From the NCBI GenBank assembly GCA_016839815.1, contig JAEOTM010000047.1, forward strand, positions 47,620 to 111,619: DNA of 64,000 nucleotides, in the 5' to 3' direction. The notes under the pieces are model-generated. The model was given only the letters and a program-made list of their open reading frames with translations. It was not told the origin of the DNA and ran no database searches. Each line of letters starts with the position of its first letter. The stretch's first letter is position 1. This DNA is from Candidatus Hodarchaeota archaeon. Lineage in GTDB: Archaea; Asgardarchaeota; Heimdallarchaeia; Hodarchaeales; Hodarchaeaceae. A program made the position numbers and the translations under genes. Shown piece by piece: positions 27,417 to 41,455 of this stretch.

Positions 27417-30341
27417 TTAAGAACAATTCACACAACGAGCAACTACTTCTTCATTTTTGATTTTGACTTTAACCCTTCCACAAGATTCACAAACCTCTGT
27501 TCCACATTTCTTACAGACAGAAAGAAGGTCAGGAGCGAAAGAGTTCTTACATCCTTGACATTGCTTAGGCATATGTTCAGGACAATATGTAGCCTCTGTG
27601 TTTGGATCAAATGTACTACATTCACCACATAAACCCTGTCCACATACTTTGCATACTTCGGAGTGATCCAGGCAAGCAGTTTTTCCACACTTCTGGCAGA
27701 AAGAAATATGTTCACTACAGAATAGCTTAAAACAAGTAGTACACACAAATGTAGGAGGGGAAATTTCTCCTGCCAATAATGATTGATAATAGTTCTCGGT
27801 GCTTATTTGAGGACCACATCCCTCGCACATGAGTTCAGCATTCCCATTATATAGATTAAGATTGAGATGAAATTGGTTAATGTTTTCCACACTATCTCGG
27901 TTTTCTTTAATAGAAACAGGTATAGTTAAACGAGGGACCCAATATACTGATTTTTCAATAATCGACACATCTGCCTTACCTGGCCTATAGAGATCTGGTG
28001 GCACACCTTGACCCTTAAGAACTTCAATGGACTTATGAAATGCCTCATAATTTTCCTGTTTCTCTTTGAATAGCTCTTGTCGTTTCATTTCACTTTTTTT
28101 TATCTGCTTTCTAAGTTCTTTAGTTCGTTCTTCATGCCTCATCTGTTTAGTAGATGTAGAATCAATGGATCGTTCAATTGCTTTAACTGATCTTCCCTCT
28201 GCAACACGAGCTTTCCGCTCTCCCTCCAAACTTTCCACACGTATTAGTGTTTCATCAAGTTTTTGATTCTCGATTTGTAGTTTTTCCTCTATTCCGCTTA
28301 TTTGATTAGATAACTTCGATAATTCCTTTCCAACTTTTTTTCCTGCAAGTTTTGAAATTTCAGTTCGTTCATATTCTCGTAATCGCTCCTGATAGATCGA
28401 TTCGGCCTCTGGAAAAGGATTCTGTGTAAAATACCAAATCAAATTTTCAGGGAGTTTAGTAATCACCTCTTTATCAAATTCAAGGAATTTATAATCTGAA
28501 AGGGGTTGAATTGCTAGATCTCTTGCGGGAAGAGAGGATGCGTGAATTCCTTCAATTGTGGTAGAGTTCCAATCAATTTTTCGTAAATCAAATGTACGAG
28601 ACATTTCCTCTTTAATTTGTACTGGAAACAGTAATTGGCCTTCTTTAATTGTTCTTTTTATATCTATTAAGGTTTTTGTAAAATAAAGAGGAGAATAATA
28701 TATCTCATAATCCCCTACCTCAAGATAAATTCCATCATGATCAGGATTGCCACTAAGACTTAGTCTTTCATGAATAACAGCCGTGTGTTCCTTATTTTCT
28801 GGTTTGATTTTCGGACTGAGAAAGCGTTCTGTAATTTTCCCCATTGCAGGTTTTTTCGACTTGAATGAGATTGTTGAAGGTAATTTCTCTTTCTTGACCT
28901 CAGAAACCGGTTTTTCTTTTTTCAGCTCAGCTTTTTTTGGTTTAGGAGGTTTTAACGTAAGAGCGGTAATTTCAGAATTGGTTAATGGGCCTTTATGTAA
29001 GCTTAACAACCAACGCGTTTTTAACATATTGACCCCATGGAGAGGATTGTAAGCGATGAAGTTACCTGGTTTCAGTGCACGAATCTTTCCCATTAAAGAT
29101 TTAAACTCCTCTTCCGTACCACCACTCCCTTCAAACACAGGTTTTAACGCACCTTGAACTTTTGCAATATCTTGATTGGTAGCTAATCTACCTAGTACCC
29201 AAGTAGCGATATTTGACAGCCCCCGGTAATCTAAATCACCAGGATTCTGTGTTGCTAAAACACATCCTAGTCCTGCAGCTCTTGCTTGTTTTAATAATAT
29301 TAGAAGTGCAGTTTTTGAAGGAGGACTAAGGGAACCAGCGGGCATGAATCCATACAACTCATCGAAGTATATTATAGCCCGTAAACGGCTTGTACCACCT
29401 TTCGACCAAGCCCAGCGTTGTACTTCTCCCAAAATTTCTGCTACAAAAGTATTTTTTTCATCGGAATCCGTTATTTTGCGTAGATCAAAAACTATAATAG
29501 GAGTTTTGTTCTCTTTCGTAGCTAAGCCAATTAATTTATCAAAATCAAGCTCCACTCCCGGAACTGTACGTACCATTAGTGCATTTATGTTACGGGCCAG
29601 TTCCTGACATTTAGTACTGGATATGAATTTATCAACTGCAAGTGAACCAACTTTTTTAAACGGAGGATCTTGGATTTTTTCTATTAGAAGATCCAAACCT
29701 ACAACGTTCTTTCTTTCATTTTCCCATACATGACGAATTATATTGTTTAGATATATAACACGATTATCAGTAGAGGAAGATGTACCTATCCCAACACGAG
29801 ATAACAGTAATTGTATTTTCAGATCTAAAGCACTTAACACTGCATCAGGTGATTCTTCCATCATCTTACTATAGTTTTTGGGTTTTTCAAAATGAGGGGT
29901 TAGTGAAATTTGAACACCTGCAGCATTTTTAGGAGTAATTAGTATTGTAGCAACTCTATCTGAATATTCAGCTTCAGCTGAAAGGTAATCATCGCCAAAT
30001 GAGTCTTCAAGCTTTTCTTCATATAAATTGATCCAATCATCTGCGATTTCTTCTGGATCTCCTCCCCCCCGATCTTCAGCTTCGACTTTGGCGTGTATTA
30101 ATAGTCTATCTCTAGAAAAATCACCAAGTCCTATTCCTAATGCTCCAATATCTCCCTTGGGATCAATTGCTATTACTGGAATATTCGATCGAATCGCTTC
30201 TTCAACTATTGACTTGCACACAACCGTTTTTCCCGAGCCTGAGGCCCCTAATACTGCAGCATGCGTTAAAAAAGTCGTAGAGGGTAATTCAAATCTTTCA
30301 CCCTCACCTATTCGTCCGAGAAAAAATTTTGGATCAGTCAT
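27417..30341 (-). CDS. HerA/FtsK-superfamily ATPase (DUF87/DUF853-like) with coiled coil and Cys/His-rich C-terminus
   Basis: THAAVLGASGSGKT (Walker A), IDPKGD, IIYFDE (Walker B), LLKQARAAG, LATQNPGDLD and 12 CxxC/CxxH pairs. Confidence 0.85.
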   Translation of the reverse strand: MTDPKFFLGRIGEGERFELPSTTFLTHAAVLGASGSGKTVVCKSIVEEAIRSNIPVIAIDPKGDIGALGIGLGDFSRDRLLIHAKVEAEDRGGGDPEEIADDWINLYEEKLEDSFGDDYLSAEAEYSDRVATILITPKNAAGVQISLTPHFEKPKNYSKMMEESPDAVLSALDLKIQLLLSRVGIGTSSSTDNRVIYLNNIIRHVWENERKNVVGLDLLIEKIQDPPFKKVGSLAVDKFISSTKCQELARNINALMVRTVPGVELDFDKLIGLATKENKTPIIVFDLRKITDSDEKNTFVAEILGEVQRWAWSKGGTSRLRAIIYFDELYGFMPAGSLSPPSKTALLILLKQARAAGLGCVLATQNPGDLDYRGLSNIATWVLGRLATNQDIAKVQGALKPVFEGSGGTEEEFKSLMGKIRALKPGNFIAYNPLHGVNMLKTRWLLSLHKGPLTNSEITALTLKPPKPKKAELKKEKPVSEVKKEKLPSTISFKSKKPAMGKITERFLSPKIKPENKEHTAVIHERLSLSGNPDHDGIYLEVGDYEIYYSPLYFTKTLIDIKRTIKEGQLLFPVQIKEEMSRTFDLRKIDWNSTTIEGIHASSLPARDLAIQPLSDYKFLEFDKEVITKLPENLIWYFTQNPFPEAESIYQERLREYERTEISKLAGKKVGKELSKLSNQISGIEEKLQIENQKLDETLIRVESLEGERKARVAEGRSVKAIERSIDSTSTKQMRHEERTKELRKQIKKSEMKRQELFKEKQENYEAFHKSIEVLKGQGVPPDLYRPGKADVSIIEKSVYWVPRLTIPVSIKENRDSVENINQFHLNLNLYNGNAELMCEGCGPQISTENYYQSLLAGEISPPTFVCTTCFKLFCSEHISFCQKCGKTACLDHSEVCKVCGQGLCGECSTFDPNTEATYCPEHMPKQCQGCKNSFAPDLLSVCKKCGTEVCESCGRVKVKIKNEEVVARCVNCS

Positions 30342-30935
30342 TGTCTTTCCCTATATTTGATATTATGATGAAATTGAATTAAATTAATAAATGAATCCTT
30401 TAGTTCAAGGCCCAAATAAAACTATTCTATCTAAGAAACGCCAAAAATTTTCTGCTATACTGGTGTTGGAAGATGTCTACACAAAAGTTTCCTCTTATTA
30501 CATTAAGCGGTACTCCAGAAGAAATAGGTACACAACATGGAGAACTCCTAAAAGACAAAATTCATTCTACAGTTACTTGGTATAAAAAATAATCTCTTCC
30601 GATGAAGAACGTATTTTAACTCTATGTAAGCATTTTAAATGGGAGAATGGGATTTAAGGAATACAAGTCAGGTTCTGAATATAAATTCCAGGTTGATGAG
30701 CTTGAGAAAAAACTGATGTAATCAGTATTAATCCTAAATTATGGTTTTTCCCCTTTATTTCAAATTACTTTGTTGTGAATAGAATCGTTCATTAAAACAA
30801 AACGTTTTCATAATACATACCAAATCACAGTGCATAGGACGCATGATAGGCTTCCTGCTTAGCTTATCAGAACAGAATGGCATTGATTGGCTTTCTAAAA
30901 ACTCCCTATATGTAGAATTCTCAATAAGGAGATAA

Positions 30936-31529
30936 GTGTTCTTGGTAAATGTTGGTATATTAGGAGATATGAACTGCGGAAAAACCTCTGTTTTTGTACG
31001 ATTTATGAATTCATTAGCAGCAACCAACGAAAAGATAATCGCTGGTAGCCCAGGTGGACCAGAGATGTATACCACACAGACTGTAGATTTCATTCGATTC
31101 ACTCATAGGGGATTTATCCATGTTTTATATGGCACAGGTGGGCATACAACACCTATTACCGATTATTATCGAGTTTATGTTTTGAGAAACGCTAACCGAT
31201 TCCTTTGCATGTTTGATCTATCGATTGACTTAGATAGGCAACTTGAATTCTATCATAATCTTGAAATTCCCACAAAACAAGTAACGATTTTTCTTAACAA
31301 ATATGATCTGGCAAAAGAAAACTATGAGGAATATAAGGAAAAGGTAGAGGATTTCTTTATTAATGATCAAAAAAAATTAATAAAAGAAATTCTTCCCACT
31401 GTCGCCATTAAAGTTGAGGATAATCAATTTAAAAAGGAATCACAGAATTGTTTAAAGGGGATTTTAGATTTGTGTGAGTTTGACAAAGATGCGTCTGCAT
31501 TTGACGTTTGGGATGGACAAGGAAAATAA
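30936..31529 (+). CDS. Atypical small P-loop GTPase (MglA/CvnD-like)
   Basis: G1 GDMNCGKTS, G2 YTTQTVDF, G3 LYGTGGH, G4 NKYD, G5-like PTVA. AAGGAGA RBS. Confidence 0.75.
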   Translation: MFLVNVGILGDMNCGKTSVFVRFMNSLAATNEKIIAGSPGGPEMYTTQTVDFIRFTHRGFIHVLYGTGGHTTPITDYYRVYVLRNANRFLCMFDLSIDLDRQLEFYHNLEIPTKQVTIFLNKYDLAKENYEEYKEKVEDFFINDQKKLIKEILPTVAIKVEDNQFKKESQNCLKGILDLCEFDKDASAFDVWDGQGK

Positions 31530-31548
31530 TTAAACCTAGGTTTTAATA

Positions 31549-32460
31549 TTGGAGAATTCTGATCCATTTACACAACTTGTTGATACTCTAGCTGTAATTG
31601 AAAATCAAAACCGCATTCTTTGCCTAATAGCGGTATATTTGGGTCAAAAAGCCGATCAAAACACTATCCAAGGAATTACCGACATACTCTCAAGTCTTTT
31701 AGGTAAACATGAGCAATTTACTACGACAAAAACTCGGGGGTTGATCACCTCTCTTGTGAATGGTGGGATTCTGGAAAGAGAAAGAGAGAAAGTAATCAGC
31801 TCTACAAAAGTTTCTTTTCATTCGATCAGTTCTCTAGGCTATATTGTTTTGACTTATGTCCTACTGACATATGTCATAAGAATCGATCCTGCTTCAATCG
31901 AATGGGATACCAAAAGATTCAATGAATATACTGATTCTGAAGAAAAGATGATTTTATTCTCTATTGACACCTTAATTACTCAGGAGACTACTCTGAAACG
32001 GGTTTATACTTCACTTAGATCAGGAAAAGACCCTCGTAAAATTAAACTCTCAAAACCCTTAATTATCCCAGTCAAAAAAGTCTTTTCTGGGAATACTGGA
32101 TATAGAGTGTTTAAAATCTTTGAAGAACTAATTTGGGATTACTTACACAATAATACAGGATTCACTAAATTGGGACTTGAACAATCAACAGAAATACCAA
32201 CTGCATTAACTGGTTCATTGAAGAAACTGGATGGACTCTTTCTTCAACAAGAGAATTGGACAAAAGAAAGACGCTACCGATTATCAATTCAGGGGATTTT
32301 CATTTTACCAATCTTTGCGTTACTAATTAAGCATTTTTCTGTGGATAAATCGTTATTTCCTTCCCTAAAATTAGCGAGACTAGAGAAAGATGAAAATTAT
32401 TGGATTTCTCTGTCAAAATTAGGACATACGTTTTTTAAAACGGTATATAGGATCTCATAA
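31549..32460 (+). CDS. Hypothetical protein, probably two winged-helix domains
   Basis: ITSLVNGGILERE..FHSISSLG and LKKLDGLF..RRYRLSIQG each resemble a wHTH recognition helix plus wing. Confidence 0.5.
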   Translation: MENSDPFTQLVDTLAVIENQNRILCLIAVYLGQKADQNTIQGITDILSSLLGKHEQFTTTKTRGLITSLVNGGILEREREKVISSTKVSFHSISSLGYIVLTYVLLTYVIRIDPASIEWDTKRFNEYTDSEEKMILFSIDTLITQETTLKRVYTSLRSGKDPRKIKLSKPLIIPVKKVFSGNTGYRVFKIFEELIWDYLHNNTGFTKLGLEQSTEIPTALTGSLKKLDGLFLQQENWTKERRYRLSIQGIFILPIFALLIKHFSVDKSLFPSLKLARLEKDENYWISLSKLGHTFFKTVYRIS

Positions 32461-32539: not shown

Positions 32540-33940
32540 TTGCTAAAGCTTTCAGATGAATTGAATAATCTCCATTATTTACCACTTGTGGATATTCACA
32601 CTCATATAGGCCGGGTTAAAATCGCAACAACAAAAGGAACCTCCCAACGAATCAACCAACCTCAAGATATAACGAATTTATATCAAAAGTTACAATATGA
32701 AATTGCTTCTCGTATCAATCAAACCAAAGAGAATCATTATATTGATATACTTGAGGTAGAAACATGTGTAGAACCTCTCTTCCCAATTGTTAAATCATTA
32801 CTCAGCGAACAATCCACAGTGAAATCACGAGCTTGGTTAGTAGACAAAATTGTAACATTCCCTTTTAATGACTTATTCCACCTAAAAACTGATCCTAAAT
32901 TTGTAAAAAGTAATCGTTATGTTCGTCATCAGGTCAATACATTGGAAAATACTTTTAGATTTACTCCTTTTTGTCGTGTTGATCCTACAGACTCGGATGC
33001 AACAAATGAAGTTCAAGAGTCTATTAAGCTTGGAATGTATGGATTGAAATTACATCCGCTTTCTCAAGGTTGGATAGAAAGAATAAAATCAGAAGAAACT
33101 AAGGAGGTATTACAAATTGCGGGAGATCTCAATATTCCAGTGATTTTTGATGTACCGAACAAAGGAGTGGCTCTTGATATTACAGCCGTGACTCAAGAAG
33201 CGCGTGATGAATCAGAGTTTCCTGTTTCGGTAATACTTGGTCATACTGGATTTGATTATTCTTCTCCGGAGGTTTTTGAGTGTCTCTCACAAGAAGGAAT
33301 GTATGCAGAAACTTCAGGAATGAGAGGGAAGGATGTTGAAATCTTCTTTAATAATGTATTAGAAGTTCCTGACTGGGAGGATAAGCTCCTCTTCGGTACT
33401 GACCACAATTATTTTAGTGTTCTTCAAGCAACGGATGTAATTGCTTTTTTATTCTCAAATCAGTTCCGCACATTACTAATCGAAAACGGAATTCAAAAAC
33501 AACCTATAGATATTGCATTCAAAATCTTAGGAGCGAATTCCTTATCCCTAATACCTGTAGCATGGCAAAGAAAAGAAAATAAATCTCCTAAACTCAAGTA
33601 TAAAATCAACAAACAAGTATTTCTTCAGTTTCTCAAGAAGTTCATGAGTATAGAGGGAAATTACCAGAGGATTGACTTGGGGTATGATCAAGCAAAAGAA
33701 CAAATTGTGCAAATCCTCACTATAGGGGAGAAAACCTCTAAAGTATCATTTGTAATTTATGAAACGATAAAACGAGACGAAATTCTTTTGCACTCACTTC
33801 ATTCAGCAATTCAAAAAGTGAATTATAGAGAACATTCATTATTTCCAATACTTTCCTCGCAAAAATCATTGAGAAGAGCAAAAAAATTGTCCTTGGAGAA
33901 ACTAGAGACTACGATGTCGCAGAATATGTCGCAAGAGTGA
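32540..33940 (+). CDS. Amidohydrolase_2-family TIM-barrel metallohydrolase with C-terminal extension
   Basis: VDIHTHIG, GLKLHP, ILGHTG, YAETSG, LLFGTDH, ILGAN. Confidence 0.85.
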   Translation: MLKLSDELNNLHYLPLVDIHTHIGRVKIATTKGTSQRINQPQDITNLYQKLQYEIASRINQTKENHYIDILEVETCVEPLFPIVKSLLSEQSTVKSRAWLVDKIVTFPFNDLFHLKTDPKFVKSNRYVRHQVNTLENTFRFTPFCRVDPTDSDATNEVQESIKLGMYGLKLHPLSQGWIERIKSEETKEVLQIAGDLNIPVIFDVPNKGVALDITAVTQEARDESEFPVSVILGHTGFDYSSPEVFECLSQEGMYAETSGMRGKDVEIFFNNVLEVPDWEDKLLFGTDHNYFSVLQATDVIAFLFSNQFRTLLIENGIQKQPIDIAFKILGANSLSLIPVAWQRKENKSPKLKYKINKQVFLQFLKKFMSIEGNYQRIDLGYDQAKEQIVQILTIGEKTSKVSFVIYETIKRDEILLHSLHSAIQKVNYREHSLFPILSSQKSLRRAKKLSLEKLETTMSQNMSQE

Positions 33941-36900
33941 AAACAATGGAACTAAAAGACTACTTATTAGAAACACCGTTATACTTCTCACATGGGATTG
34001 AAGTCGAAAATCATCTTGTGGATACTACTTCAGGTGAAGTACTGGTGGGAAATGATCTTCTGAGTACATGGGAGGAGATGTTTTCTGGAGCAGCAAAATA
34101 TTTAGAGAAACTAAAGAAAGCAAAACATACTCCAAAAACTATAGCAAAGAAGATAGTCAAAATAGAAGTCGCTGAAGAGCTAAAAAGAGAGAAACGGTTA
34201 AATTTCATATTCGTTCATTACCGACTTGGAAAGAAAACAGTCCGAGTCAATGTATTTGGTCCTGATCCAAATATTTCACAAATTACCTGGTTATTAGAAT
34301 TAGTAACCCCTCCCTGTGAGTATCTTGAAGAGATCGCATTTTGGATCGACTCTTTATACGCAGCTGCAGCTCATGGATTATCAAAACTAAAGAGTAAGTA
34401 CAAGCTGTTACCTTTAGGCCTGAATCCCATGGAAAAACGAGTACGAAGCGGTTTAACCTGTGGAGAGCACCACCATATTGGTGTAGCGTCATTTATTCGA
34501 GCACCTGTTTATAATATGTTACGCAACTATACTCCTCATTTGATCGCATTAAGCGCCACTTCTCCTTTTCTTAATCAAAAACCTAGTAGTAAGATCATTG
34601 TTAAGGAGAAAGAAGGAAAAAAGCAAGTAATTAGTAGAGGTATTCATTCTTATCGTCTAGCAAATAATACAGGACAAATGGGACCAAACATTCCGCAATA
34701 CCTTCCCATTATAGATGATATGACTACTCGGGAAGATTTTGCACGCTCGATCCGCAAAGTTCCCCCTGAGGACCGAATGATAGATCTTTTCCCCTATACA
34801 GATTATTCAACAATCGAGCTAAGGTTCTTTGATGCCCAACCTTGGAGGGAAAATCGTTTAGCTATGGTGTTACTTATTCAAGCCTTAGCACAAAAGACGA
34901 AAAACTTGATTAAAGAGAGGAAAGCAGTTCCAACTGTTTCTTCGCAGAGTTTATATGAAAACCGTCGAAAAGCAATTCAATTTGGCCTATTAGCTCAATT
35001 TACAAGGGATGAAAATCTAACTGGGGAGTTTGCCTGGTTCTATAACTATGATATCGAAAATGGAGTAAAAGCATCTAAGTTAATGCATTCTGTCCTGGCA
35101 TTATTCATTTACATTGAGGATGAACTTCTTGATTTGAATTCAAAGTATGTTGACCAGGTTCTTCTACCTGTTTTAGGTTCGGAAAAATTTGCTCCTCCAT
35201 TTACAGTATGTGAATATCTCCTATCACTCTTCACTGAAAAAGGGGAAAATGCCAATGAATTCCTGAATGAAATCTATTATTCTGAAAAACTTACTTATCC
35301 TCCGAAAGTAGCAGGTAATTTTTCTTCTTTTCTTGTTGAAAACCCTCCCGACTCATTTTCAGAAGTTAGTGCAGAAAAAGACAACTTAACCAGAATCTTA
35401 AGGCAGGATATCGCCACACGAGATGTTTTCAAGAGTCAACCTCCTCCAAAACCAAAAAAGAGAAAGATAAAGAAACCTGTTGTCCCTAAAGAGATACCTG
35501 TTGTAAAACCAAAGAAAAAAGTCCTAGTTGAAACACCTAAGAAAGTCCCACCTAAGAAGAAGGAACCAACCAAAACACCAAAAACAAAACCTGCAAAAGC
35601 AAAAAAACCAACTAAAGTTCCCCTCCTAAAGAAGGAAGTAAAGAAAACTCCTAAACTTAAACCAGTAGAAATCGTGCAGGAAAAAGCAAGTCAGGTAATT
35701 TCTGCATTTGATGAAAATGAAGATCTCGAAATTTATTCCCCTATGATTGAGATAGAACCAAAATATCAGAAGATTAACTCTAAAATCGCAAATATTATGC
35801 GTACACGTCGTCAAGAAATTGAAGCAAAACGAGTTGTATTCTTCCGAGAGCATCTAAAAGCAGAAGAATCTAATTTTAAGCCATTCCCAAAGAAAAGAGC
35901 CGCTGTATTTCCCGCTTTAATATCTGGTTCTGAATTATTTGGTTATATTGAGCTTACATTCGGTGATATAAAGAAAGTAATGTACCAATTTAGGAACAAT
36001 CCTATAACTTTAAGATTTTACGATGATACCACGAATAAAGAGGTAGATACGTTAAGGACTTTCATTGATATATCAACACTTGAAAAACGCCAAATGGTAA
36101 GAATACCTTGTTCTATCGACCTGGGAGAACTCTATGGAAAGATTAAGCTAAGAGTGGAGGCGGTTACCTCAACAAATCATCGATTATTGCCCGAAAAGTT
36201 CAGTTTTACATTAGAACGCAAAGATGAAATTAGTATTTCCCCCAAGGAGTTCTATATCACAAGTAATTTTGGGTCTGTAGAATGCATTTACAAAGCAACC
36301 AATGACTCAAAGAAGGAAGAAAGAGGGGAGTTGACGCTCCTATTAGCTACACAAGCATCATCATCACCTATTGTCATTTATGAGGAAAAGTTCTCAATTA
36401 AACCTCGTGCATCCTATGAATTGGCACGAAGTATTGATTTGTCAATTGATTATCAGCATAGTTCCTTTTATATTTTAGCTCGTGTAACTACAGGGCTTTT
36501 AAAGAAAAACCGATCTTTTAAGAGCATTCATGTTCCTGTATTACGTGAAGTGGTTGTCGATTGGTCATTTGAAACCCACACTGGTTCTAAAAATGACTTA
36601 TGGCTGGGTGTAGAGCCTAAAACACACTATGCTGTAGATTTTGTGTTTCATTTCCTTAGGTCATTGCCACCTGTAAGTATTACAATCTATATTAACACAT
36701 TTCCTCAAGGTGAAACAAAAAAATTGACGAGTTTACGATTAAAACGTTTCATCGATAAAGGAGACGAATTCCGTGCGCCAACGGTCAAATTTAAGACTCC
36801 GAAAAAATGTGGTTACTTAATCTTTGACGCGCAGATCCGTACTGAAAAAGGAATTCTTCCCATGCACCTTATTTCAGAACCTATTGGGGTATATGCGTTA

Positions 36901-36945
36901 ACCACAAAATCTACTTTCGAACAAAGCCGGAATTTAGATTTGTAA
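33937..36945 (+). CDS. Large GCS2/YbdK-family carboxylate-amine ligase with Lys/Pro linker and beta-rich C-terminal domains
   Basis: HGIEVE, LELVTPPC, CGEHHHIG, PHLIALSATSPF, SYR, TIELRFFDAQ, ENRRKAIQFGL. Confidence 0.82.
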   Translation: MKTMELKDYLLETPLYFSHGIEVENHLVDTTSGEVLVGNDLLSTWEEMFSGAAKYLEKLKKAKHTPKTIAKKIVKIEVAEELKREKRLNFIFVHYRLGKKTVRVNVFGPDPNISQITWLLELVTPPCEYLEEIAFWIDSLYAAAAHGLSKLKSKYKLLPLGLNPMEKRVRSGLTCGEHHHIGVASFIRAPVYNMLRNYTPHLIALSATSPFLNQKPSSKIIVKEKEGKKQVISRGIHSYRLANNTGQMGPNIPQYLPIIDDMTTREDFARSIRKVPPEDRMIDLFPYTDYSTIELRFFDAQPWRENRLAMVLLIQALAQKTKNLIKERKAVPTVSSQSLYENRRKAIQFGLLAQFTRDENLTGEFAWFYNYDIENGVKASKLMHSVLALFIYIEDELLDLNSKYVDQVLLPVLGSEKFAPPFTVCEYLLSLFTEKGENANEFLNEIYYSEKLTYPPKVAGNFSSFLVENPPDSFSEVSAEKDNLTRILRQDIATRDVFKSQPPPKPKKRKIKKPVVPKEIPVVKPKKKVLVETPKKVPPKKKEPTKTPKTKPAKAKKPTKVPLLKKEVKKTPKLKPVEIVQEKASQVISAFDENEDLEIYSPMIEIEPKYQKINSKIANIMRTRRQEIEAKRVVFFREHLKAEESNFKPFPKKRAAVFPALISGSELFGYIELTFGDIKKVMYQFRNNPITLRFYDDTTNKEVDTLRTFIDISTLEKRQMVRIPCSIDLGELYGKIKLRVEAVTSTNHRLLPEKFSFTLERKDEISISPKEFYITSNFGSVECIYKATNDSKKEERGELTLLLATQASSSPIVIYEEKFSIKPRASYELARSIDLSIDYQHSSFYILARVTTGLLKKNRSFKSIHVPVLREVVVDWSFETHTGSKNDLWLGVEPKTHYAVDFVFHFLRSLPPVSITIYINTFPQGETKKLTSLRLKRFIDKGDEFRAPTVKFKTPKKCGYLIFDAQIRTEKGILPMHLISEPIGVYALTTKSTFEQSRNLDL

Positions 36946-37046: not shown

Positions 37047-38330
37047 TTGATGACTCACAAAGTTGTAAATGTAGGAAATATTGAAGGACGGGCATATCTC
37101 CATACCCTAGATATAGAAAAACTAGGTATTAATGAATTTGATTATGTTAAGATGGTGACAGAATGGGAGGATTGGGGTGCAGTTCAAATACTTTCATCAG
37201 ATGAAGTGGAACAGGGCACTATCGCTGTAGATGGAAGTGTACTCTCATCAGCAAACATCTCAGATGGTGATGCAGTCGAAGTTGAAGCAGTAAAGGCCAC
37301 AGCAGGTATTAAATCTATCAAACTTGGAATCGAACCTCTCGCAGGACAAGAGGTTGAAGAAGCTATCTTATGGATCGCTACTGAATTCGAACAGCTATCT
37401 ACATTGCTCAAAAATCGTCCTGTCTTTAATAATTTACAGATCTCATGGGAAGATTGCCCTATTGGAAGTTTGACCGTGAGATTCTTAGGTGCAGATCCTC
37501 CAATCCCTGACGAGGATATCGGAATAGTTGATCCTACTGGTAGAGAAGTAGAAATTAACATTATTCCTTTCACTGAAATGAGTTTCAACGCTGTTTTGGT
37601 TCTTGATGTATCGGGTAGTATGTCTAAAAAGGATATGAAAGTTAAAAATATTAGTGGCGCTCTAGAAGGATTGAAGAAAGGCTTAGACGAATCTAATGAA
37701 CTTAATGCGTTTATAGAAAAGTTTCAAGATGGAAAGAAAGTTTCTAGAGTGGATGCGGCTGCAATGGCAATTATGTTGTTCATGTCACTCAAGATTGCAA
37801 AGGGATGGGGAGAACAGATCCAATTATTGACGTTTTCTGGAGAAGTGGAGAAATTTGAACTTGGGGAATCAAATGTTATTTCCTGTGTAGGTGAAACCAA
37901 AAAAGCAGGAATTGAGAGTATTATAGATCACGTTGTGCAAAAAACCGCAGAAAGTACTGGGTTGACCTTTTTGAGTGGGGCAATTGATCAAGCATACAAA
38001 AGTATTGATAGTTTTGACGACAATCCTACAATCCAAAAGAAAAATCCGACCATGATTATTGTTCTGACTGACGGTAATCCAAATAAAGGAAATGGACTTG
38101 GAGTAAATCCTATTCCAATTGTTAAGCAACAGGTTGAGCAATTTCCCGAAGTGGTTCTCTATGCTATCGGTTTAGGCGAAGCAGATCGACTAATGTTACG
38201 TAAGATTGGAGAAATGGGTCGTGGAGGAAGTCTGATGGCCGATGACCTGGAAACGTTAATCGATTTTTACGATTCATTAGCTCAAAATTTCCAGATGGTC
38301 GTTAAAATGAAAAAGGAACCAGAGGAATAA
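37047..38330 (+). CDS. CDC48/VAT N-domain fused to a VWA domain
   Basis: The first ~175 aa follow the CDC48_N/CDC48_2 pattern. The VWA MIDAS is intact (LVLDVSGSM, GLTF, IVLTDG), plus YAIGLG. Confidence 0.8.
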   Translation: MMTHKVVNVGNIEGRAYLHTLDIEKLGINEFDYVKMVTEWEDWGAVQILSSDEVEQGTIAVDGSVLSSANISDGDAVEVEAVKATAGIKSIKLGIEPLAGQEVEEAILWIATEFEQLSTLLKNRPVFNNLQISWEDCPIGSLTVRFLGADPPIPDEDIGIVDPTGREVEINIIPFTEMSFNAVLVLDVSGSMSKKDMKVKNISGALEGLKKGLDESNELNAFIEKFQDGKKVSRVDAAAMAIMLFMSLKIAKGWGEQIQLLTFSGEVEKFELGESNVISCVGETKKAGIESIIDHVVQKTAESTGLTFLSGAIDQAYKSIDSFDDNPTIQKKNPTMIIVLTDGNPNKGNGLGVNPIPIVKQQVEQFPEVVLYAIGLGEADRLMLRKIGEMGRGGSLMADDLETLIDFYDSLAQNFQMVVKMKKEPEE

Positions 38331-38576: not shown

Positions 38577-40100
38577 ATGCCAGAATACAAAGTTGTAACA
38601 TCCGATATTGATCCAAAAGACGCTGTTCTAGTTTCTCCGGAAAATAATCAACAAATAGTTACTCAAGCAAAATTTACTCTAGCTTTTAAAGGAGCAGAAG
38701 AAAAAGTTGGTCAGGTTTTCAAGTTAAAATGCTTCTTAGAAGAAGATGAAATTGGTTTGTCTCAGGTGATGATGAATAAGCTTGGAATAACAGAAGGAGA
38801 AAAAGTACGTCTGCAATCAATTGGACGGACAATCTCCAGAAGCTTTCCTCTAATTAAACAACGAATAACTCAACCTGGAAGAATGTTCACTAAAAACGAA
38901 ATAGATCAAATAATCAGCGATATTACTCTCGACAACATGACCCCACTTGAAGAATCGGTTTTTCTAACCTCTCAGATGCTTCAAGAATGGAGTATTGGAG
39001 AAATTGAATGTTTAACCAACGCAATAGCTCATTCAGGGCAAATGATCAATTGGGGAGATACAGTTATCTTTGATAAGCACTCTCTTGGTGGGGTTCCAGG
39101 TAACAAGGTAACTCTTTTAGTTGTTCCTATAATTGCTGCAGCTGGATTAACTATTCCTAAAACTTCGTCACGAGCTATTACCAGTCCTTCAGGTACAGCT
39201 GATACCATGGAAGCTCTTGGATGTAAAATTGAATTTACTATTGATGAAATGGTTGACATTGCTCACAATATTGGGGGACTTATTGCTTGGACAGGTGGTT
39301 TAAACATTGTTCCTGCTGATGAGAAAATAATTCGTGATGTTCAATATCCTTTAGGTATTGATCCCGAACCAATGATGATGGCTTCAGTGATCTCCAAGAA
39401 AGTTGCGATGGGAGTTAAGTTCCTTGTTTTAGATATTCCAACGGGATATGGTACTAAGGTTGCTAGTTTAGATGATGGTAAACGGATTGCTCATCGATTT
39501 GCAGAGTTAGGACGGTTACTTGGAATACGAATTGAAAGTGGAATAACTTACGGTAGCTCACCTGTCGGTAATGCCATTGGACCTGGATTAGAGGCTAGAG
39601 AAGCATTGACTAGCTTGATGAATCCCTTAGAAGCTCCACATTCCTTAGTAGGGAAAAGTACCTCACTAGCAGGTATTCTTTTGGAAATGGCTGGTAAAGC
39701 TATTGCTGGTGCAGGTCAAGAAATGGCATATGAGATTTTGAACTCTGGCCAGGCCTATCAGAAATTCCAAGAAATTCTTGAAGCACAGAATGCGGAACCT
39801 GACTTAAAACCAGAAAACATTGAAGTTGGGTCAGCAACATATGACTATCTAGCTCCTCAAAGCGGTTATGTTGTAGAAATCAATAATAAAGTAATCGTTC
39901 GGGCTGCTCGAGCAGCTGGAGCTCCTATGGACAAACGTGCTGGTGTGTACTTCCATAAAAAGAAAGATTCTGTGAAACGTGGAGAACCCTTATTTACTTT
40001 GCACGCTCCTTCAGAAAAAAAGTTATCAGCTGCTCAAGCTGAATTAACTAAAGGAGATTTACCTGTTACTATTGAAGGTATGCTTCTAGCACGTGAATGA
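38577..40100 (+). CDS. deoA: AMP phosphorylase (archaeal thymidine phosphorylase family)
   Basis: DKHSLGGVPGNK, IPKTSSRAITSPSGTADTME, ASVISKK, LDIPTG, ARAAGAP. Start at ATG 38577 after a GGTGA RBS. Confidence 0.92.
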   Translation: MPEYKVVTSDIDPKDAVLVSPENNQQIVTQAKFTLAFKGAEEKVGQVFKLKCFLEEDEIGLSQVMMNKLGITEGEKVRLQSIGRTISRSFPLIKQRITQPGRMFTKNEIDQIISDITLDNMTPLEESVFLTSQMLQEWSIGEIECLTNAIAHSGQMINWGDTVIFDKHSLGGVPGNKVTLLVVPIIAAAGLTIPKTSSRAITSPSGTADTMEALGCKIEFTIDEMVDIAHNIGGLIAWTGGLNIVPADEKIIRDVQYPLGIDPEPMMMASVISKKVAMGVKFLVLDIPTGYGTKVASLDDGKRIAHRFAELGRLLGIRIESGITYGSSPVGNAIGPGLEAREALTSLMNPLEAPHSLVGKSTSLAGILLEMAGKAIAGAGQEMAYEILNSGQAYQKFQEILEAQNAEPDLKPENIEVGSATYDYLAPQSGYVVEINNKVIVRAARAAGAPMDKRAGVYFHKKKDSVKRGEPLFTLHAPSEKKLSAAQAELTKGDLPVTIEGMLLARE

Positions 40101-40516
40101 TGATAATTACGAAAATGAAACCATCGGCATCCCTTCCTCTTGATCTTCTATCCACATTCGTAGATTATTGTAACTCGATAACTGATTCCACTGTTATTGT
40201 TGTCGAAGGGAACCGAGATATCGAAGCATTAAGATCAATTGGTTTAAATTTAACAAGTGGAAAAATACTAGCAAAAAAGGGATTATCTCTAGCCCAAACC
40301 GTTGACCAAATCTATAAATTTCCTGTGATAATTTTACTTCTTGATTTTGATAAAGCAGGAGCTCGTATACGGGGAAAATTAAAACAGGAAATTCAAAAAC
40401 GCAAAGGTCATGGACTTATTGATTCTTTCCCAAGGCAATTACTGTATAAATTTTGTCGTGCCGCTCGTATAAACGAAATCGAAGAAATTAAACAATTTTC
40501 AGATTTAATTCTCTAA
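40097..40516 (+). CDS. Small Toprim-domain protein (UPF0292-like)
   Basis: IVVEGNRDIEAL, LLLDFDKAG. Confidence 0.85.
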   Translation: MMIITKMKPSASLPLDLLSTFVDYCNSITDSTVIVVEGNRDIEALRSIGLNLTSGKILAKKGLSLAQTVDQIYKFPVIILLLDFDKAGARIRGKLKQEIQKRKGHGLIDSFPRQLLYKFCRAARINEIEEIKQFSDLIL

Positions 40517-40606
40517 ATTCAGAAATATTGGGACATAAATATATTGAAAAACAACACTGATTAAGAGTAATATCTACAGGTGATCGTGTTATTAGGAGAA
40601 TAACAC

Positions 40607-41455
40607 ATGAAAATCGGGGATTCTTCAGGATTAAAAAATGAAAAACTCTTTTTTCCTAGGCGCACAACCATTGCGAGTTTTCCTGGTGGAAAAAGTGATG
40701 TAAAAAAGCACCTTCCACTTTATTCATCGATCCCCATAAAAGTAGACTATTTAGTTGAACCTTTTGCAGGTTTAGCTAATGTCTTCATTTCAATATCCCC
40801 AAGAGTTTCGCGAGTATGGTTAAATGATAAAGATCCTGAAATTTATTCACTTCTCCATTGCATCAATGATTCTTCATTACTCCCCCAGCTCATAGAATAT
40901 ATTAAATCGTTGGAGCCCATTGATAAAGCTGATTATTATCATTGGAAAGAGTCTAATCCCTCTGAACTGTTAGAACGTGCAGTCAGAAGATTAGTCATAC
41001 TCAATTGTTCTCCCAATGGAGCTGGAGGAGGATATAGTAGGGAAAAAGCTCATCGGAAATGGTACCAAAACAAACCCAAACTTTGGTTTACAATTCAGCA
41101 GATTTTTCATAAAAAATATGTACGGATTACTAATCTTGATTATGAAGAAATTCTAAATTCTTTCTCTCATGTTGAGCATGAGAAGAAATATTTTCTCTAT
41201 TTAGACCCCCCATATTATGATGTGGCACAAAAAGGCTCTTTATATGGCAAAAAATTCAATCTTATTGATTTAAAGGAATTGAAATCGTTGTTAGCTCCTC
41301 TTTCGATTCACTGGTTATTATCAAATCGGGATACTCCTAGGGTCAGAGAGATCTTTAGAGAATTTCACTTATTTGGATATAATACCTATAATGATATGAA
41401 TAATACGAAAAGTAATAATCCTGAACTTCTCATTAGTAATCGTCCTTTTGAATAA
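40607..41455 (+). CDS. DNA adenine methyltransferase (Dam/D12 class), orphan
   Basis: FPGGKS, VEPFAG, NDKD, YLDPPY, WLLSN, ELLISN. Confidence 0.88.
   Translation: MKIGDSSGLKNEKLFFPRRTTIASFPGGKSDVKKHLPLYSSIPIKVDYLVEPFAGLANVFISISPRVSRVWLNDKDPEIYSLLHCINDSSLLPQLIEYIKSLEPIDKADYYHWKESNPSELLERAVRRLVILNCSPNGAGGGYSREKAHRKWYQNKPKLWFTIQQIFHKKYVRITNLDYEEILNSFSHVEHEKKYFLYLDPPYYDVAQKGSLYGKKFNLIDLKELKSLLAPLSIHWLLSNRDTPRVREIFREFHLFGYNTYNDMNNTKSNNPELLISNRPFE

Follow-up and report, generated by a model that had tools for sequence, protein, structure and literature searches.

A Cdc48-type N domain followed by a vWA domain in Asgard archaea: a candidate docking subunit for a linked carboxylate-amine ligase and metal hydrolase

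Introduction

The 64,000-nucleotide stretch of Hodarchaeales DNA analysed here (the window) encodes a protein in which a Cdc48/VAT-type N domain is followed by a von Willebrand factor A (vWA) domain, and whose gene is accompanied in most of the ortholog neighbourhoods compared by genes for an Amidohydro_2-type hydrolase and a giant GCS2/YbdK-type carboxylate-amine ligase. We consider it somewhat probable that this protein, referred to as Cdc48N-vWA, is the non-catalytic docking subunit of an Asgard-specific module formed by the three genes. The pairing with the hydrolase is supported by genomic linkage, by a natural fusion and by a complex model; the chemistry of the module and its substrate are inferred.

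The gene and its two domains

The coordinates of the Cdc48N-vWA gene, its domains and its neighbours are given in Table 1. The open reading frame and its translation are exactly those reported in an earlier sequence-only reading of this DNA. Nevertheless, the true start is probably not the first TTG but the ATG at position 37050, which would yield 426 residues, because a GGAG motif is found 8 nt before this codon and the proteins of relatives begin at the same position in the alignment; an AT-rich stretch lies upstream. The gene is present in a single copy in the genome from which the window comes. On the opposite strand, window positions 37184-37588 (-) contain an antisense open reading frame; frames of this kind, of 100 to 245 aa, recur in 13 loci including the window, and in all likelihood reflect the conserved sense frame rather than a gene.

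Table 1. Features of the Cdc48N-vWA gene and of its neighbourhood in the window
Feature	Position	Strand	Details and basis
Cdc48N-vWA gene	37047..38330	+	427 aa from TTG 37047; open reading frame list and translation
N-domain lobe 1, double-psi beta barrel	37047..37301	+	residues 1-85
N-domain lobe 2, beta-clam	37308..37571	+	residues about 88-175; two-lobe structure alignments
vWA domain	37578..38306	+	residues 178-420
MIDAS motif DVSGS	37605..37619	+	residues 187-191; regular-expression match
Other MIDAS residues	T307, 37965-37967; D342, 38070-38072	+	
Short acidic C-terminal tail, MKKEPEE	38307..38327	+	alignment and tail count
Amidohydro_2-type metal hydrolase, conserved partner	32540..33940	+	466 aa; weak Pfam match, linkage, complex model
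Giant GCS2/YbdK-type carboxylate-amine ligase, conserved partner	33937..36945	+	1002 aa; Pfam/NCBIfam and PDB matches, linkage
Atypical small GTPase (197 aa) and 303-aa protein, co-oriented upstream	30936..32460	+	
HerA/FtsK-like ATPase, divergent	27417..30341	-	974 aa; weak NCBIfam matches

The first domain had been read as the double-psi barrel and beta-clam of the Cdc48/VAT N domain, and several lines of evidence bear this out. Residues 13-83 match the Pfam family CDC48_N (PF02359) with an E value of 2.8e-6 and 27.8 bits, below the cut-off of 35.1 bits; the same family is matched by the N regions of 29 of 36 relatives, with a best E value of 3.5e-10. An AF2 model of residues 1-180, built with an alignment of 36 diverse N regions as input, reached a pLDDT of 90.2. 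When this model was compared by Foldseek with isolated p97/CDC48 N domains, approximately 180 columns were aligned with TM scores of 0.69-0.72 (by query) and 0.68-0.80 (by target), and an rmsd of 2.9-3.8 A. No CDC48_2 sequence match was found for the second lobe; however, an exhaustive VIA-align search aligned the N domains of CDC48A, PEX1, NSF and VAT, as well as UFD1, over 150-168 residues, and because these structure alignments span such a length we conclude that both lobes, i.e., the barrel and the beta-clam packed against it, are present. The identity with the N domains of Cdc48/p97/VAT, PEX1, NSF/Sec18 and UFD1 is only 11-21%, and in contrast with the Cdc48-type proteins no AAA+ ring follows.

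The second domain matches the Pfam families VWA and VWA_2, both above their cut-offs. The metal-site residues expected on a vWA fold, a DxSxS motif plus a Thr and an Asp, are all present, and the five MIDAS residues (D187, S189, S191, T307 and D342) are invariant across 33 orthologs, in agreement with the complete MIDAS that had been noticed from the sequence. A motif search found no Walker A, as had also been stated, and there is no AAA Pfam match. An identity as a Cdc48/p97/VAT AAA+ ATPase is thus ruled out, given that the D1/D2 modules, the Walker A motif and the AAA match are all missing. The description of the vWA domain as standing in place of the AAA+ domains is correct as a statement of domain order, but not as a demonstrated evolutionary replacement. 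Both domains are binding modules and no enzyme domain accompanies them, so that the idea of an adaptor holds. The C-terminal tail is short in the window protein; in the Heimdall-type orthologs it extends to 52-78 aa, with 28-42 Asp/Glu residues and no Lys or Arg.

Distribution of the family among Asgard archaea

The search for this architecture revealed a widespread Asgard family and not an orphan; we found no paper that describes a ligase/hydrolase/Cdc48N-vWA module. A word-indexed search recovered 89 homologs of 234-507 aa, nearly all of the named ones from Asgard archaea, i.e., Hodarchaeales, Heimdall-, Thor-, Odin-, Jord-, Freyr- and Promethearchaeota. The closest database proteins are 94-95% identical and carry the labels Hodarchaeales or Heimdallarchaeota. 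A full HMMER scan of 1.84 billion representatives returned only 90 clusters, and the named members that were looked up among them are Asgard proteins plus one record labelled Korarchaeota. In the ESM Atlas, one cluster, of archaeal origin, shows the same two-domain shape (TM 0.84).

The Cdc48N-vWA gene was detected in 172 of 301 sampled Asgard genomes, and in 62 of the 90 high-quality ones, but it is confined to 10 of the 30 families sampled. The catalytic domain of the GCS2-type ligase occurs in the same 10 families, with closely matching counts for the two genes (Cdc48N-vWA and ligase, respectively: 11/11 and 11/11, 5/5 and 5/5, 6/6 and 6/6, 65/76 and 61/76, 61/68 and 61/68); the remaining 20 families yielded no match to either gene (for instance 0/28, 0/19 and 0/11). 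Because this pattern is steady and single-copy, it argues for a housekeeping role rather than for one in mobile defence.

The length of the proteins varies among lineages. At three loci (L032-L034) and in two families (f14 and f27) the vWA protein has 580-770 aa and carries an N-terminal extension, which in L034 shows a weak match to an extra double-psi barrel; where this long form occurs, the ligase reading frame has only about 550-610 aa versus 1000-1400 aa elsewhere.

Genomic linkage with a ligase and a hydrolase

In total, 25 neighbourhoods representing 23 distinct loci were compared using tblastn and all-against-all blastp. Among the 18 ortholog neighbourhoods (L001, L003, L005-L007 and L017-L031, with the long form of L034 counted apart), 15 contain a homolog of the Amidohydro_2 hydrolase no more than about 10 kb from the Cdc48N-vWA gene, and 13 of them the ligase as well. 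The linkage persists at loci whose Cdc48N-vWA protein shares only about 30% identity with that of the window, and the order and orientation of the linked genes vary among lineages. The 764-aa long form of L034 is also linked to both genes. Against a docking function within a fixed module, the ligase and the hydrolase are absent near the close ortholog of L006 and at four paralog loci (L032, L033, L035 and L036).

The window's hydrolase matches Pfam Amidohydro_2 weakly (E 0.011); its orthologs match this family (PF04909) clearly, and Amidohydro_2 is found in 30 of the 30 nearest named clusters of the ESM Atlas. The free hydrolases keep the DxHxH, LKLHP, GH and FGTD motifs typical of metal-dependent amidohydrolases. 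The 466-aa protein is a TIM-barrel enzyme of the Amidohydro_2 type. The ligase, a carboxylate-amine ligase of the ATP-dependent GCS2 type, is matched by Pfam GCS2 and by YbdK-type NCBIfam models, as well as by the PDB entries 1tt4 and 1r8g. Its catalytic part comprises approximately residues 1-480, and it is followed by a Lys/Pro-rich linker and by a large beta-rich C-terminal part for which no family match was obtained.

Other neighbours have a narrower distribution. Homologs of the small GTPase, of the 303-aa protein and of the HerA-like ATPase were found beside the module at L017-L019, in the window's genus, and at L007, but nowhere else; these three genes are genus-specific additions that lie outside the core module. 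At these four closest loci the ATPase gene (window 27417-32460 for the whole arrangement) is divergent to a tight run in which the GTPase gene comes first, followed by that of the 303-aa protein and by the module. The 33 matches of the genome to the Gtr1_RagA model do not include this GTPase. Elsewhere in the same genome (L009-L016), at least 10 strong matches to the Gtr1/RagA model were recorded, with E values of 1e-16 to 3e-36; the reading frames involved span 193-737 aa, and contigs C168 and C182 carry clusters of them. Two Asgard families only (L003:15150-16670 (-) and L023-L026) show, beside the module, a coiled-coil protein of 506-529 aa together with another of 90-116 aa. Downstream in the window, positions 40097-41455 (+) encode a small protein with a Toprim domain (139 aa) and, after it, a D12-class N6-adenine DNA methyltransferase (282 aa). 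Neither the neighbourhood in the window nor those fetched loci that carry Pfam annotation showed a MoxR-like gene, and a MoxR-associated vWA protein was ruled out as an identity for Cdc48N-vWA, since no MoxR-type AAA+ gene is adjacent.

Natural fusion and complex model

In four loci of one Asgard family the two proteins are joined in a single polypeptide of 873-892 aa, which at one of these loci is in pieces. Residues 1 to about 400 of the fusion align with the hydrolase, and the part between residues 465 and 870, approximately, with the Cdc48N-vWA protein over its full length; the fusion gene adjoins free copies of both genes. The DxHxH, H, GH and D motifs, retained in the free enzymes, have been lost from the hydrolase half of the fusion, and it shows no Pfam match; judged from these losses, the fused copy is catalytically dead. 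A natural fusion is classic evidence of joint function and, therefore, the free hydrolase and the Cdc48N-vWA protein are expected to work together.

A complex of the two window proteins was modelled with each partner given its own alignment. The ipSAE, which is the model's confidence score and no measurement, was 0.82, 0.78 and 0.76 (median 0.78), versus 0.00 for three control pairings; each partner had a pLDDT of 78 or more, and at least 37% of the contacts are shared between runs. In the calibration of the tool, 58 of 80 solved complexes attained the mark, as did 2 of 110 mismatched pairs; these counts are only a rough guide here because our own alignments were used. We know of no solved complex of this kind, so that recall of a known structure is unlikely.

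On the hydrolase, the modelled contacts involve barrel loops at the catalytic end and a helical insert after the DxHxH strand, i.e., residues 24-57 (after this strand), 174-180, 206-213, 239-241, 260-268 and 291-295. On Cdc48N-vWA, they involve both N lobes, the linker residues 96-100 and one face of the vWA domain; the MIDAS residues do not take part in the modelled interface and the MIDAS is exposed. The enrichment of conserved residues at this interface is not significant (15/44, p 0.17), which counts against the docking function.

The position of the interface over the catalytic face of the hydrolase also favours a different explanation, namely a small-molecule pathway in which Cdc48N-vWA serves the hydrolase as a regulatory or maturation subunit, acting as an active-site cap (an inhibitor or a gate) or in metal loading, as MIDAS-containing vWA partners do for other enzymes, and with no modification of proteins. 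The same genomic data that suggest a docking module fit such a pathway, and the YbdK/GCS2 and Amidohydro_2 enzymes characterised to date use small molecules as substrates. We consider this explanation unlikely: the module has no linked MoxR-type ATPase; the ligase has 1000-1400 aa among the loci, with a Lys/Pro-rich linker and large extra domains; and dead fused copies have been retained, a feature commoner in protein-scaffold systems.

Relation to the ubiquitin system and to Cdc48

The sequence-only reading had proposed that the protein captures Cdc48-type substrates or cofactors and passes them to a separate motor or to the proteasome. The part of this proposal that concerns an adaptor agrees with the two binding modules and the lack of an enzyme domain, but the hand-over to Cdc48, to another motor or to the proteasome finds no support in the window genome, where the conserved partners are the ligase and the hydrolase, the HerA-like ATPase is restricted to the genus and the E2 genes are located on other contigs.

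A related view is that of a free adaptor similar to Ufd1 or Rpn10, whose N domain would bind ubiquitin-like folds or Cdc48 cofactors while the vWA domain docks to an unfoldase or to the proteasome. This view draws on two orthologs from Sigynarchaeota (565 and 570 aa, 38% identical to the window protein) that end in a ubiquitin-like domain (PF00240, E 3.9e-6 and 9.4e-6) and are encoded near genes of the ubiquitin system: one of them lies 1-5 kb from a cassette of ubiquitin, ThiF-type E1, UQ_con-type E2 and JAB genes, and the other two genes away from a JAB gene. In the window genome and in the other, non-Sigynarchaeota, loci that were fetched, no Cdc48, proteasome, ubiquitin, E1, E2 or JAB gene is adjacent, the conserved linked partners being instead the ligase and the hydrolase; moreover, the window protein has neither a ubiquitin-like domain nor a Pfam match to a ubiquitin-binding family. 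For these reasons we regard the free adaptor as distinctly unlikely for the window protein, while the Sigynarchaeota loci keep the ubiquitin idea alive for the family.

Neither of the two Sigynarchaeota loci (L038 and the locus of P0091) was found to contain a ligase or hydrolase gene within 10 kb, a further point against the docking module. These loci suggest that the family may work with whichever system for writing and erasing amide bonds a lineage possesses. In L038, the gene between that of the ortholog and the JAB gene (L038:1981-3108 (-)) codes for a 375-aa protein that crosses the membrane several times and has a Cys/His-rich, perhaps RING-like, tail.

Comparison with DEPDC5/Iml1

Among solved structures, we found the order of a Cdc48/NSF-N-like domain and then a vWA-like domain only in DEPDC5 and Iml1 (Sea1). 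According to a review, the NTD of DEPDC5 is Sec18/NSF-like and its SABA domain is Sec23-like, a composition present in no other protein (PMC8534245). It could therefore be asked whether Cdc48N-vWA is an archaeal relative of this N-terminal half (NTD plus SABA), serving as a scaffold for small-GTPase regulation as in GATOR1/SEACIT; small GTPase genes do occur near Cdc48N-vWA in the window's genus and in Heimdall-type loci. A whole-model Foldseek search aligned the DEPDC5/Iml1 chains over about 430 columns with E values of 7e-11 to 6e-10, TM scores by query of 0.34-0.37 and an rmsd of 9-11 A, and ranked them beside p97 N-D1, for which the rmsd is about 20 A. DEPDC5 is not among the best 50 rigid whole-model alignments, so a rigid superposition of the two domains is unsupported.

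Sequence similarity to DEPDC5/Iml1 is not detectable: Pfam IML1 (PF12257) has no match in the window genome even at an E value of 10, and profile searches of the PDB sequences do not reach DEPDC5. Furthermore, the N domain is nearer to those of Cdc48 and PEX1, the MIDAS is complete, and the protein stops after the vWA domain at 427 aa, lacking the SHEN, DEP and C-terminal domains. The conserved neighbours are the ligase and the hydrolase and not NPRL2/NPRL3, and the GTPase neighbours differ by lineage in a group of archaea rich in such genes, with the 33 Gtr1_RagA matches of the window genome as an example. Work on Asgard genomes has reported NPRL2-like longin proteins and has named no DEPDC5 relative. 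Thus, the likeness to DEPDC5/Iml1 is real at the level of fold order only; common ancestry is possible but unproven, and a role for Cdc48N-vWA as a GATOR1-like scaffold seems highly doubtful.

Proposed function and comparison with other systems

In the docking-module interpretation that we favour, both N lobes, their linker and one face of the vWA domain would clamp the catalytic face of the hydrolase's TIM barrel, as seen in the complex model. The free MIDAS would be available to bind an acidic group on a third partner, which may be the ligase or the substrate. The ligase would form an amide bond and the hydrolase would remove it, on a substrate that is probably macromolecular, and the docking protein would bring together the eraser, the writer and the target, or else gate the hydrolase. 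No gene for a substrate or a tag of the module was identified.

Several features set this arrangement apart from known adaptors. The N domain is predicted to hold a hydrolase, unlike the known N domains, whose ligands are UBX, SHP or ubiquitin. The MIDAS-type vWA adaptors BatB, TFIIH p44/Ssl1, Rpn10, ArnB and the Sec23/24 trunk all lack a Cdc48-type N domain and, to our knowledge, none of them pairs with a GCS2 ligase or an Amidohydro_2 enzyme. The closest parallel, by analogy only, is pupylation (PafA, Dop, Pup and Mpa), in which a carboxylate-amine ligase, an amide-cleaving enzyme and a binding protein are likewise combined, and whose ligase is related to the glutamine-synthetase/GCS-like fold class. 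In contrast with pupylation, the putative Asgard eraser is a TIM-barrel amidohydrolase and not a homolog of the ligase, no gene for a Pup-like tag was found, no proteasomal ATPase is linked to the module, and tagging is here a proposal.

A bolder possibility, which we think rather unlikely, is that the module constitutes a ubiquitin-independent Asgard system that writes and erases amide bonds on proteins, in which Cdc48N-vWA would hold the eraser while its MIDAS captures an acidic target or tag; eukaryotic DEPDC5/Iml1 may subsequently have acquired this two-fold module.

Significance

Among archaea, the Asgard group is the nearest known relative of eukaryotes. Its members have kept, widely and by vertical descent, a gene set built from folds that eukaryotes use in the Cdc48/NSF/PEX1 adaptors, in vWA scaffolds (Rpn10, TFIIH and Sec23/24) and in DEPDC5. 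We know of no described system in which a giant amide ligase and a metal hydrolase are combined with such docking folds. Protein modification by the module, if it occurs, would mean that the lineage ancestral to eukaryotes has a new kind of tagging chemistry alongside ubiquitin; should a relationship to DEPDC5 hold, the family would be the first archaeal antecedent of the largest GATOR1 subunit. Either way, the hydrolase and its predicted adaptor form a pair that lends itself to expression and experimental testing.
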